Positions 4,816-31,616 are shown, counted from the first letter of the whole stretch. The stretch: 62,413 nucleotides of DNA, filler included, from Atractiella rhizophila (GCA_021432655.1; 26 parts of 26 records of this genome joined end to end with filler, not necessarily neighbours in it); one strand, 5' to 3'. Translations and numbers: made by a program. The notes: a model not told the origin generated them from the sequence alone.

Positions 4816-5031
4816 NNNNNNNNNNNNNNNNNNNNNNNNNNNNNNNNNNNNNNNNNNNNTTAATTAATTAANNNNNNNNNNNNNNNNNNNNNNNNNNNNN
4901 NNNNNNNNNNNNNNNGGCGAATGACACTGCTGCTGCTTGCTTGAAGTAGTCGTCGCTCACTTTGCCCTTTTCTCTGTCCACTCATCATCTTGCATCATCT
5001 TATCCTGATCCATAAAGCAGCAGCCTAAGAT

Positions 5032-7260
5032 ATGGCAGCACCGACGAGTTGTCCTGGCTTCAACACGCCCAAATGTAAAGGACTGTTGCCCGAAGGAGCA
5101 GCGAGATGTCCAACCTGTTTGAAGCAGGGTGTGACGAGCAGGTGGTGTTCCAAAGGTTCGTCTTTGGCATCCCAGCTTTAGAATTCGAGAAGGCTGATGA
5201 AATGTTGCTCTCTAGAATGCTTTGCTGATAATTGTACGTCTCCTCTTTATAGATTAAGCGACGGCTGATCCTGCTACAGTCGTGAGTGATTTGATCTCGG
5301 TTTCGTCTATATCATCTCGATTTATGTTTCTTTTCTTAATCTGATTAACTCGTTGAACAAAGGATTCCTAATTAACAGGAATACAGCTTATGTCTTTTCT
5401 TTGTAGTCAAGAAAGGCATCTCCTGCTCAACCAAGAGCATGATGTCAGTGTTGTTTGAAACACTTCTTACCTTCAAATACCGCGCTCCATTCCGCAAATT
5501 CACGCTGGGAGATGCTCTAATGCACAGATTCCGTCCACAGGTTTTCAATGATTCAAGCGAGAGAGCACATACTTTATTCGTGTGCTTTTTGCCCAAATAT
5601 AAAACGAGAGCTTTTCTAGGTCTCGCTGTATTGTATTTATGCCTAAATGTCCTGGTATCTCTTTCCATGATAAAAAAACATTTCCATTTATATCTCAACA
5701 TCGCGGTGTTACAAAATGGTACCGCTCTAACGTTATCGAATTTTGAAGATATCGATTTGTGATGATCTCTGCGTGTGATTATTCTAGCTGGTTGTACACA
5801 ATTTTGCAATCGTTCCAGTTTTGATAGATCCATCAAAGGCATTTTCGACTTATATTAGTCTCACTGCTTCAAGTTCCAAAGCAGTACGTTCCATCACATT
5901 TTCTCACACTTTTGCAGTTGCGATTGCATAGGAGTGTGTGGTCATGCAAGGAAGTCACTGTCGTTCTCCCTTACGTTTGAGTGTCGAGTTCTAAACGAGG
6001 ATTTTTCTATCTAAGCTGAACCAAGTAGCTTTACGAGATTATTACTACCTGACTCCTGAAAGCGACATTTTCAGTTTCACTGACATCTGTTGAACTAGCC
6101 GAAACACAAATTGCAACACAAAGGTGGGTAAATCTCATTCGACAGGCAGCACCTCTCACCGTGTCGCATCATTCAAGCGCACGACCCATACCCGAAAAAA
6201 GCGTACACCGGAACACTCCGAGCTTCGTTCCCAGCATCCGTTCGTTCAGTGCCATCAGACATCCAACAACGACAGGTTCCCCCTCATATCCTTAAACCAG
6301 ACTATGCAGAATCAGGTGCGTCTCCACCGTTCTCCTCGTACCAATCCTTGCTGACGGTTTGGGATTTGGGTAGGTAAGTGGGGTCGCATCAAGTATGGAA
6401 TCTCAGAAGTGGGTATGTCTGATCGACGATTTTTTATAATTGAAAGGTCAATCGAAAACGGAAATGGCAGCTCGAAATTTTGCTCCTGCTTGTTTGGATG
6501 CGAAAGGCATCGAGGGAATGCGAGAAGTCTGTCGCGTGCGTCCTCTTTTCGTTGTCATCGAGCGAGCTAAGTTGAAATGTATTTGGCGACAGTTGGCGAG
6601 AGAAGTATTGGACTTGGCTGCTAGTCACATTAAACCTGGAATCACGACCATAGAGCTGGATGAGATCGTACACAATGCTTGCATCGAGCGAGGAGCATAT
6701 CCTAGCCCGTTGAACTACATGCTCTTCCCGCGCAGTGTTTGTACAAGTGTGAACGAAGTCATCTGTCATGGTTCGTCTTTCATTATGCGCCTTGCAAAGC
6801 CGAGCTTATTCTTTCACAGGGATCCCTGATCTTCGTCCACTGGAAAAGGAGGACATCATCAACCTCGACGTGACGCTCTACCACAACGGGTGTGTCAGCT
6901 CTGATCTTCTCACGTCAGCTCAACCGACCCGAATGGTGGCAGGTTCCACGGCGATATCAACGGAACGTATCCCGTCGACGAAGCGCATACCCCTCCGGAC
7001 TCTTTACGACTCATCCGCACGGCTCGCGAGTGTCTAGATGAGGCAATAGCAATCTGTAAACCAGGAGTGCCGTATTCACAGCTCGGAAAAGTCATTGAAG
7101 GCATCGCCAATCGGGAAGGAATGGGCACTAATCGACGATATTGTGGACATGGGATAAATCAGCTCTTCCATTGCACACCAAACGTCCCGGTACGCTTTTA
7201 TTTCCCTTTCTCTCTCCCTCTGGAAATTGCTGAGTTAAGATTATGTAGCATTATGCTGCT
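5032..7260 (+). CDS. MAP1: Methionine aminopeptidase 1 (N-terminal zinc finger), 3'-truncated
   Basis: Exons 5032-5155, 5216-5233, 5280-5281, 6099-6123, 6178-6315, 6447-6535 and onward give [126 protein letters not shown]. Confidence 0.95.
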
Positions 7261-7360
7261 NNNNNNNNNNNNNNNNNNNNNNNNNNNNNNNNNNNNNNNN
7301 NNNNTTAATTAATTAANNNNNNNNNNNNNNNNNNNNNNNNNNNNNNNNNNNNNNNNNNNN

Positions 7361-7610
7361 CTGGAGTTGAAAGGTAGTGTCGCCCCCTGCTAAGGAAGAG
7401 GATTCAAAGGGGACTTGATCTTGAACGGGAACTGGTGGCCGAGGCCTGAGTTCGAGCCCTAAATGATGCCAACGAGGATCCGACTGGAGTTGAAAGGTAG
7501 TGTCGGCCCCTGCCAAGGAAGAGGAGTCAAAGGGGACTTGATCTTGAACGGGAACTGGTGGTTGAGGTGGGAGGGCAAATTGATGCCAACCCGATTTCCC
7601 TTGAAGTTGC
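7361..7610. repeat. 123-bp coding tandem repeat, about 2 copies
   Basis: CTGGAGTTGAAAGGTAGTGTCG...GGGGACTTGATCTTGAACGGGAACTGGTGG starts at 7361 and again at 7484. Confidence 0.9.
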
Positions 7611-7957
7611 ACGGATGCGTCATCAACATTTAAGAGGGTTTGGGATTCCTTTCCATCTTGATGGTCAAGGCTCCGTGGAGGACGAAGGAGCACCTGAGGG
7701 GGGTCGTGATTGGCGAGAAGTTCTGCCTGTCCACCTTGCCGTGCAGCCTTGAGGACATCTTGCCTGAGATTGTGTGTAGGACAGGACAACGAACTAGCAT
7801 GTGCTTGACGTTGGTTGGTTACGACCTGATTGGAGTGATCGTTTGGCCGATCGCGCTGCCACCACCTCTCTGCCTCTGCAAGCTTACGTAACAGAGCGCT
7901 GTTCTCCTTCCGTAACCGTTCATTTTCATTTTCCAAATCTTTGAGCCTCTCCTCCAT
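7361..7957 (-). CDS. Hypothetical protein, N-terminal coiled coil followed by 41-aa tandem repeats (truncated)
   Basis: Open from ATG 7957 (MEERLKDLENENERLRKENSALLRKL) to the contig end; PPVPVQDQVPF(D/E)SSSLAG(A/G)DTTFQLQ occurs twice. Confidence 0.45.
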
Positions 7958-9507
7958 GCTGCGATGGTCTGCATAACTGATCAGCGAGATTACGGAACGG
8001 ATTGTGAATTACCAGAAGAGGTTAGGTAGACAAATCCCTCACGGCGGATGCAACTCTCCTCTAACCCTTTCCTGCAACTCTTCTCAAAACAAATATGTTC
8101 GAAATGATCCACCTACTTTTTACAGAGAGTACACGGGAAGCGAGTTCCTTTCGGCCTCACACACTTGGTCTTCTTTCGTTCGCATTCCTACGCTATCCGT
8201 TCAGTAACAGTCTTAACCGTCGCTATACGAACCAAACAGCTGTCGCCAGGAGTCAGTAATGCAAATCGATACGTGAAAAGGAAGAGAAATGGCACCTGAA
8301 TTTGGGCCGTTTTTTCAGAGGCAGGCTCACCTCCTTTTTGTTCGGCATGCGGGAAGGACCTGAAATTGAGATGGACTCTTGATGCTTGTCTCTTGCCCCT
8401 GACTTTGTCTGAAAAACGAACATAGAACGATATAGCTGCGAAGAAGCTGAGGAAGATTGAACTCGAAAACAATGAGGTCTAAATGGAGACAACCTTGAGG
8501 GGCTTCTGGGGGGTTGCCCTCGGTCGTCTTAGGGTGACAGACTTGGCTTGCTCATGGTATTGTACCTTGAAGAACACTGCATGTAGGAGATTACCTTCCT
8601 TTCTTCTTCCTTCAGCAGAAGTTACAGCAGTAACATACCTTTCCACAAGGCATTTTCCATTGTGTTTTGTACTTAGTTAACAACAACTACTAATATGAGT
8701 GAGCACAATAAGTCTATAATTCGAAACCTTCGTCCGCTTCAGCCAAGCGTGGTAGGCTCAAAATTTCACCATAACACAGGAGATAAACCGTTTGGCCATT
8801 GGGTGGCAAACGTTCCGTGAGCTGGCTATGAATACAGTTCGCAACACAGGCAAGCATCTTAGAACGACGGTGGGAAATTACCAAGCTAGGTGAAGGCAGG
8901 ATGATGCATGAAATAACGAACCTGAAAGACAAGAAGGTTCTGGACTTTGGCAAGAATGTTCGAATATGGGCAGCCGAAGGTCGTATCTGGCTGTGAAGAT
9001 TGAAGAGGCGGGACAGCAAGGCTTTTCGTCCGATTCGCCGAAAGAAGAGAAAGAGAACAACGAGAAACAGCAGAAGGAGTTGCTGGCCACTCGCATGGTT
9101 TAGGGAGGTGAAGGCTCGCGAGCAGCAGCGCAGGTTTGCAGTCTCGGAATTGCTACACGGCTTGAAGCGGCTGCGGCGCCGGTTCGACAAGGCATTTCAG
9201 ATATGAAGGGTACTGTCTAAGCGACGCAGTCAGATAACCAAAGAGATGAAGAGCGACTCAAAAGCGAAACGGGATACAGAGGGTTTCGTGTCGTCGGCAT
9301 GCCGGAAGAACTGTCCAATGGGGAACACACTGAGATATGTACAAGATATGTACGTGGAAGCAATCAGCATCTAATCCCAGAAAAAGAGGAAGGAAGTATG
9401 GACGCAAAGAAATTGGCAGAGGAAATGCCATCAGGGTCTTGTAATCAACTGTCGCAATGAATGCCCAGTCCAACAAACATCTGGTATCCTCAAAATGAGA
9501 TACAGGC

Positions 9508-31012: not shown

Positions 31013-31281
31013 GCTGATGATATCCTATCGAACTTGAAGCGTCGCATTGACATTTTGTACTGCTAGTGAACTGTAACTGTAGCCTAATTGAAATTGCGAA
31101 GTTATGGGTTCACCTTGACCGAGTGAAAGAATTACCATGCCTCATCAGACGGATGGTCACAATCACGGATCTCGGATGTCGGATGTCACAGTTCAAACCA
31201 CTTGCAGAACAGCAAGTGCCACAACTTAGTGCCACATATCTGAACGTTTATTTTGCTAGCGTTCGCAAAAAACGCGACAGT

Positions 31282-31362
31282 GGCGCTTTGGCGGAGTGGT
31301 TAACGCGATGCCCTGCTAAGGCATTCCCTTCGGGGGCGTGTGTTCGAATCACACAGGCGTCG
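31282..31362 (+). tRNA. tRNA-Ser(GCT), intronless
   Basis: Acceptor stem GGCGCTT/AGGCGTC, A-box TGGCGGAGTGG, anticodon arm ATGCC-CTGCTAA-GGCAT, long variable arm, TGTGT-TTCGAAT-type T arm, discriminator G, TTTTT terminator at 31366. Confidence 0.95.
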
Positions 31363-31616
31363 AACTTTTTCCAGTTGCGTTTCATCCTCTCACTCTCGCT
31401 GACTTTGGCATCTGCGTAACGTAATAATGATTGCTTCGGTTGCAATGGCAATTCCTTGTCTAACCGTCCACCGGCTCTCACGCATGCTTTTTCATCAGTA
31501 GTCTCTTAATATGAATNNNNNNNNNNNNNNNNNNNNNNNNNNNNNNNNNNNNNNNNNNNNTTAATTAATTAANNNNNNNNNNNNNNNNNNNNNNNNNNNN
31601 NNNNNNNNNNNNNNNN

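Follow-up and report, generated by a model that had tools for sequence, protein, structure and literature searches.

Does the fungus Atractiella rhizophila (GCA_021432655.1) remove the 131 nt at positions 6316-6446 of its MAP1 gene as one intron, or as two introns that abut with no exon between them and are taken out one after the other? The second possibility, a recursive splice site in a compact fungal intron, had been raised from the DNA alone (hereafter the sequence-only reading). The whole stretch analysed (the window, 62,413 nucleotides) consists of 26 separate contigs of ~2.3-2.4 kb arranged in falling order of length and joined by 44 N + TTAATTAATTAA + 44 N, the linkers lying at 2362-2461, 4816-4915, 7261-7360 and onward. 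Since the contigs were joined artificially, genes flanking a linker are not genomic neighbours. The composite intron lies wholly inside the contig at 4916-7260. Elsewhere in the window, the next contig carries two tandem copies of a ~120-nt unit (7361-7560), which fall within a minus-strand open frame of 231 codons (7313-8008) and encode a repeated peptide, and a tRNA-Ser (GCT) gene at 31281-31363 was the only Rfam or ARAGORN match in the 62 kb.

MAP1 (type-I methionine aminopeptidase) is encoded on the plus strand and is truncated at the contig end (7260). In a profile search, Peptidase_M24 (PF00557) matched two of its exons with 48.2 and 33.5 bits (cut-off 23). Exon 1 alone holds only part of the zinc finger, and its partial match to zf-C6H2 (PF15801) for that reason reached 18.6 bits against a cut-off of 30. 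A protein search with the 82-residue exon at 6944-7189 returned 189 matches led by fungal MAP1; the best were MAP1 proteins of Sporobolomyces and Rhodosporidiobolus (62-70% identity), followed by those of Polyporales and rust fungi, and both domains are present in nearly all full-length matches among the 189. The gene was assigned to MAP1 on the Peptidase_M24 matches together with the orthologs, which are named MAP1 and bear Peptidase_M24 and zf-C6H2.

RNA data were taken from four public runs (X13, X1, X2 and X3) out of 13 weak matches, in the form of assembled contigs with a minimum likeness of 85%. X1 is a metatranscriptome; X13, the kind of which is without record, behaves as RNA, because its contigs skip MAP1 introns. 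The RNA contigs are 95-99% alike to the window in exons and therefore come from close relatives or other strains, independent of the assembly. The gene structure obtained is as follows.

5032-5155, plus strand: exon 1, 124 nt, from RNA contigs
5156-5215, plus strand: intron, 60 nt, from RNA contigs
5216-5233, plus strand: micro-exon, 18 nt, from RNA contigs
5234-6098, plus strand: long intron, 865 nt, from RNA contigs
about 6099-6123, plus strand: micro-exon (exon 3), about 25 nt, from RNA contigs
6124-6177, plus strand: intron, 54 nt, from RNA contigs
6178-6315, plus strand: exon 4, 138 nt, ending in PDYAES and the first base (G) of a split Gly codon
6316-6446, plus strand: composite intron, 131 nt, phase 1, skipped in RNA contigs
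6447-6536, plus strand: exon 5, starting with the last two bases of the Gly codon, then QSKTE, from RNA contigs and orthologs
6537-6593, plus strand: intron, 57 nt, skipped in contigs of X13, X1 and X3
6773-6821, plus strand: intron, 49 nt, skipped in contigs of X13, X1 and X3
6890-6942, plus strand: intron, 53 nt, skipped in contigs of X13 and X1
7190-7248, plus strand: intron, 59 nt, supported by loose contig ends

Six of the eight introns of the gene measure 49-60 nt. The zinc-finger part is split by two micro-exons (18 nt and about 25 nt) that flank the 865-nt intron, by far the longest in the gene, and these are bridged by X1 and X2 contigs. At the start of the small exon 3 (6099-6101) the X1 and X2 contigs have five letters against three in the window; read with the window bases, the zinc-finger exons are shifted by 2 nt relative to the catalytic part, and the RNA letters restore the frame. 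The mismatch could reflect an error in the assembly, variation between strains or a broken allele.

The 131 nt were divided as follows.

6316-6373, plus strand: unit 1, 58 nt, with donor GTGCGT, branch motif CTGAC (A at 6354) and acceptor TAG
6374-6446, plus strand: unit 2, 73 nt, with donor GTAAGT, branch motif CTGAT (A at 6422) and acceptor AAG
6371-6379, plus strand: candidate zero-nucleotide exon (ratchet point), TAG/GTAAGT, with presumed splice use

As sequence, the description of two complete introns that abut without an intervening exon is accurate at every base, and translation after deletion of the 131 nt gives PDYAES-G-QSKTE, as had been stated. The branch A lies 19 nt before the end of unit 1 and 24 nt before the end of unit 2; in each unit the acceptor (TAG and AAG, respectively) is the first AG past the branch motif. 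All three borders of the composite intron read AG/GT. Both units, with 58 and 73 nt, have an ordinary size for the gene, and the 131 nt amount to about twice as much. Unit 1 has the donor hexamer (GTGCGT) and nearly the length of the RNA-verified 57-nt intron at 6537-6593, and shares its layout of a pyrimidine-rich first half, a branch motif and a ~20-nt tail. The inner donor GTAAGT is the full consensus, from which the outer GTGCGT deviates at +3 (still a purine) and +4. The stretch CTGAC .. TAG/GTAAGT at 6351-6379, an acceptor followed directly by a donor, has the sequence of a ratchet point.

Three other identities for the composite intron were considered and rejected. It is not a stwintron sensu stricto: the outer donor GTGCGT, CTGAT and AAG are all intact, and the units abut without nesting. 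An introner-like or duplicated origin was set aside, the halves having no copies anywhere in the window; neither half resembles the other half, the flanking exons or the rest of the 62 kb (best 11-12 nt, E at least 0.14). A hosted small RNA in either unit was likewise discarded, as no RNA family was matched; in this contig no Rfam family reached its gathering score, and the sole weak match (E 0.38) was to an insect lncRNA model.

The joint 6315/6447, a 131-nt skip with GT..AG borders, was found in contigs of X13, X1 and X3, with word depths of 325, 6.6 and 5.8 and with 33, 86 and 33 letters on the shorter side, respectively. Contigs of the same three runs cover exon 4 up to its 3' joint; run X2 has no contig across the junction of the composite intron. 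In the assembled contigs of all four runs the depth over 6338-6416 is 0, X2 being without cover at the junction. The mature junction predicted by the sequence-only reading is thus present in contigs of three runs, in which the outer exons are joined directly and the interior is absent, as in the product of a ratchet point. The whole of the 131 nt is intronic and is removed from the mRNA as a real intervening sequence.

The half-spliced joints 6315/6374 and 6373/6447 occur in none of the contigs of the four runs, and since rare forms are dropped in assembly this absence favours neither pathway. In X13, where word depth is ~300, a contig retaining the long upstream intron persisted at a depth of 5.9, and no half-spliced form of the composite intron did. 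This low-depth contig (5.9 versus ~300 for the mRNA) spans 5214-5662; it has intron 1 spliced and runs into the 865-nt intron, within which it is about 91% identical to the window and is without 79 nt (5546-5624). It comes from a diverged strain and represents a transcript processed in part, and its comparison with the window puts intron divergence among the sampled strains at about 9%. Half-spliced forms were also sought among predicted proteins: a query with exon 4 gave no match among longer proteins, and exon 4 read through into unit 1 gave no match among proteins of similar length.

For the route of removal, we assign a probability of roughly 0.5 to a two-step process through the zero-nucleotide exon in many or most transcripts. 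The fungus would pair splice sites across its short introns (intron definition), and two ordinary splicing reactions would suffice. Most likely, unit 1 would be removed first, as it is transcribed, using GTGCGT, CTGAC and the first AG downstream. The CAG at the exon end, joined to GTAAGT, would then rebuild a perfect donor, which would pair with CTGAT..AAG for the removal of unit 2. The reverse order (unit 2, then unit 1) or removal of 6316-6446 in one step may operate alongside; because the units abut and neither interrupts the signals of the other, all three routes end in one and the same mRNA.

The two-step process is favoured because short fungal introns are paired across the intron, because unit 1 is complete before unit 2 is transcribed, because both units carry full splice signals at the usual size for the gene and because the inner donor is a perfect consensus nearer to the final acceptor, which removal in one step must ignore. 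In terms of general splice-site competition, a stronger and nearer donor would have to be passed over. Each unit also has an exact CTRAY motif, and a site of this kind arose in 0.015-0.21% of shuffles of the interior. Against two steps, the final product alone was seen in the four runs, a weak objection since contigs drop rare forms, and in a scan of very large size a site of this kind could arise by chance. Where an acceptor and a donor overlap, the two also compete for the same bases. Spliceosome profiling, in the accessible parts of the reports, gave one or two recursive events per fungal genome (10.1101/226894, 10.1101/224170), so that many look-alike sites may go unused.

Removal of a single ordinary 131-nt intron in one step (6316-6446), with the inner TAG/GTAAGT and CTGAC as unused chance motifs or as rare noise, is a serious possibility, to which we give somewhat less than an even chance. 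The 131-nt skip is the only form in the contigs of three runs, with intermediates absent (assembled contigs drop rare forms), a longer intron of 865 nt is removed from the same gene at 5234-6098 and recursive events are rare in the fungi profiled. A single intron, however, would contain an inner donor of perfect consensus that is closer to the acceptor than its own donor, and a unit 1 that is like the verified neighbouring introns in every respect. In the minimum-energy fold, a 10-bp interrupted stem (6317-6327 with 6378-6388) could loop out the whole of unit 1. With this stem formed, no more than about 59 nt would separate the outer donor from the 3' end, but the 131 nt fold no better than shuffled versions (z -0.84, equalled by 38 of 200) and part of the outer donor would be buried.

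How readily chance alone would supply the inner site was estimated in two ways. The window was scanned on both strands for pairs of abutting units under the rule GTNNGT, then CTRAY 8-35 nt before HAG, with a length of 45-100 nt. The composite MAP1 intron was the single such pair in the 62-kb window; 0.035 pairs are expected per window, and 3.5% of 200 dinucleotide shuffles of all 26 contigs contained at least one. The rule is a crude yardstick, without enrichment for real introns (90 single units in the real sequence versus 89.3 in shuffled sequence). In addition, the interior of the composite intron was shuffled 20,000 times with the outer signals kept. A usable HAG/GTNNGT appeared in 2.5% of these shuffles, a frequency for the looser form that leaves room for a single intron; the proportion fell to 0.21% with CTRAY added and to 0.015% for GTAAGT with CTRAY, a site as strong as that observed, which speaks against one. 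The inner site is uncommon, yet chance examples would be expected across a scan of very many windows. A survey of intron lengths over the whole window by bridging of open reading frames (at least 45 open codons per side, which misses genes with short exons) was too noisy.

The sequence-only reading had named as its alternative an in-frame micro-exon within the 131 nt.

6374-6412, plus strand: alternative exon of 39 nt, 13 open codons, with no contig cover and no ortholog residues

Flanked by introns of 58 and 34 nt, this exon is absent from the main mRNA, as judged by the contigs of the three spanning runs, and from the 42 aligned orthologs; its presence in a minor mRNA is improbable. Its inclusion would place 13 extra residues between zinc-finger linker and catalytic domain. 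In its favour, the frame stays open through all 39 nt, a good donor hexamer (GTATGT) stands at 6413 and micro-exons do occur in MAP1 (18 nt and about 25 nt). Chance alone, however, would leave 13 codons open in about half of cases, and no contig of the four runs lies over 6338-6416. The 34-nt intron (6413-6446) would leave 3 nt between the donor hexamer and CTGAT and falls far short of the 49-60 nt that the short introns of this gene measure.

The orthologs were examined by aligning both candidate proteins (fully spliced, and with the 39-nt exon) to 42 of the 120 listed matches (P0001-P0033, P0035, P0036 and P0038-P0044, all longer than 340 residues). Agaricomycete and ascomycete sequences (PDYAED-G-IPVSE, PDYAKD-G-IPRSE) align with the fully spliced form without gaps. 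In 36 of the 42 proteins, 0-3 residues separate PDYAxx from the conserved G, and none of the 42 has residues comparable to the 39-nt exon; the lost micro-exon for which orthologs were to be checked is therefore not found at this site in the 42 proteins aligned. The other six (P0001, P0009, P0014, P0018, P0021 and P0031, models from Sporidiobolales and Microbotryum) bear long inserts exactly here, which look like read-through introns: all start with G, C or S followed by E, as expected from read-through of a phase-1 intron starting GTGAG. The inserts are indirect evidence, at the level of protein models, that the phase-1 intron position after PDYAxx is one which this gene has in common with Microbotryomycetes, and they suggest that several deposited MAP1 models of Sporidiobolales and Microbotryum are wrong here, reading through the intron.

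Four of the six insert-bearing models have lost the conserved G.S..E motif. The insert peptide is alike across Rhodotorula and Sporobolomyces species, a likeness that hints at a conserved element inside the intron of these two genera. A conserved peptide in the composite intron itself was considered and rejected: in local alignment against shuffles, the frame-1 read-through peptide compared with five Sporidiobolales models gave p values of 0.036, 0.32, 0.15, 0.058 and 0.97, a likeness that is non-significant after five tests, and the range (p 0.04-0.97) argues against a micro-exon as well. Relatives were also sought in metagenomes. A scan with the poorly conserved exon 4 matched 600 stretches by pattern and gave no relative, and the conserved 82-aa exon as query detected 80 loci, most of them ascomycete-like and none above 59% identity. 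Among the 61 loci with both flanking motifs, some of which may be cDNA, none has an intron at PDYAxxG; in nine of them an intron of about 53 nt lies farther along.

That the 131 nt or their inner junction are a mis-join absent from the genome is barely credible. In its favour are the strong fragmentation of the assembly, into contigs of ~2.3 kb, and the 2-nt difference between the same contig and the RNA contigs at 6099-6101. Against it, the outer borders of the RNA joint coincide exactly with GT..AG, likeness in the flanking exons is 95-99% and neither half has a copy elsewhere in the window.

The two-step process would place the composite MAP1 intron in a known class, and it was compared with the systems described in the accessible parts of the literature. 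The sequence-only reading had tied recursive splicing to long animal introns, a tie that does not hold: cases with a zero-length exon are on record for Schizosaccharomyces pombe, Cryptococcus neoformans and snoRNA hosts of the Candida clade.

The closest of these by type of gene and host is BOT1 (CNAG_07884) of C. neoformans, where a 375-nt intron is split into 210 + 165 nt at a zero-nucleotide exon (Burke et al., 10.1101/224170). Both BOT1 and MAP1 are protein-coding genes of basidiomycetes with short introns. The junctions, branches and 3' ends of BOT1 were measured on purified spliceosomes, whereas the MAP1 evidence is the final junction only, and the MAP1 units, at 58 and 73 nt against 210 and 165 nt, are ordinary for their gene. 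Both BOT1 units are well above the usual intron size of C. neoformans.

In S. pombe, the host of snoRNA61 (SPNCRNA.445) has a zero-length exon in a 336-nt intron, called the first case of recursive splicing in a yeast, and full removal of the intron was confirmed by RT-PCR (Chen et al., 10.1101/226894). There too, a 3' splice site stands directly beside a 5' splice site in a fungal intron. SPNCRNA.445 is a non-coding snoRNA host, in contrast to MAP1, a housekeeping protein gene with no RNA family in its units, and its site is conserved among Schizosaccharomyces species.

Polycistrons of the Candida clade and Debaryomyces have exons of size zero and one between introns that bear snoRNAs (Donovan et al., PMC5033589). 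These are again abutting fungal introns with an exon of zero size, removed by successive standard reactions. Each of them carries a snoRNA, by which the units are kept apart, whereas the MAP1 units are too short for one and matched no RNA family.

Ratchet points of Drosophila (zero-nucleotide exons) occur in introns tens of kilobases long (10.1101/006163, PMC6110457). The acceptor AG followed by GTAAGT and the rebuilding of the donor after the first step would be common to both systems. The steps in Drosophila are thought to aid accuracy over distance, a need that a 131-nt intron does not have.

Stwintrons, the ascomycete comparison made in the sequence-only reading, are likewise complex intervening sequences of fungi that use consecutive U2-type reactions under intron definition. 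That part of the comparison applies; its ascomycete setting does not, as the nearest proteins found here by protein search are those of basidiomycetes (Pucciniomycotina). A stwintron has one intron nested in a splice signal of the other and its order is forced, whereas the MAP1 units stand side by side and any order would work. Lipomyces starkeyi has a [D6,7] 'stwintron sensu lato' with abutting donors (PMC7138796, PMC6616335), for which removal in one step and in two steps coexist (PMC7138796). Kavalecz et al. (PMC6616335) list 'abutting U2 introns excised by recursive splicing' as a type separate from stwintrons.

The composite MAP1 intron is therefore described here as a short candidate of a known kind, recursive splicing at a zero-nucleotide exon. 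In mostly open literature, to which the supplements of the profiling studies may add further examples, no fungal case was found with units as short as 58 and 73 nt. We propose, tentatively and at slightly worse than even odds, that the 131 nt are removed mainly or only in two steps and form by far the shortest recursively spliced intron known. Each step would then remove a unit of exactly the normal intron size of the organism, and in fungi that use intron definition a double-length intron could be two introns without an exon between them.

The protein is unaffected by the arrangement, and mRNA and protein are ordinary. Since all three borders read AG/GT, the arrangement could have originated from a new intron landing in the proto-splice site CAG/GT formed by the exon end and the older donor. 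Sites of this type mislead gene predictors, and the composite intron of MAP1 invites a false exon of 39 nt. If the two-step process were shown, recursive splicing would no longer seem a device for very long introns only and would look like a plain outcome of intron definition in compact genomes. The composite intron would then provide a 131-nt, easily engineered model for the sequential use of an overlapping acceptor and donor, and the same model could reveal how a new intron arises beside an old one.
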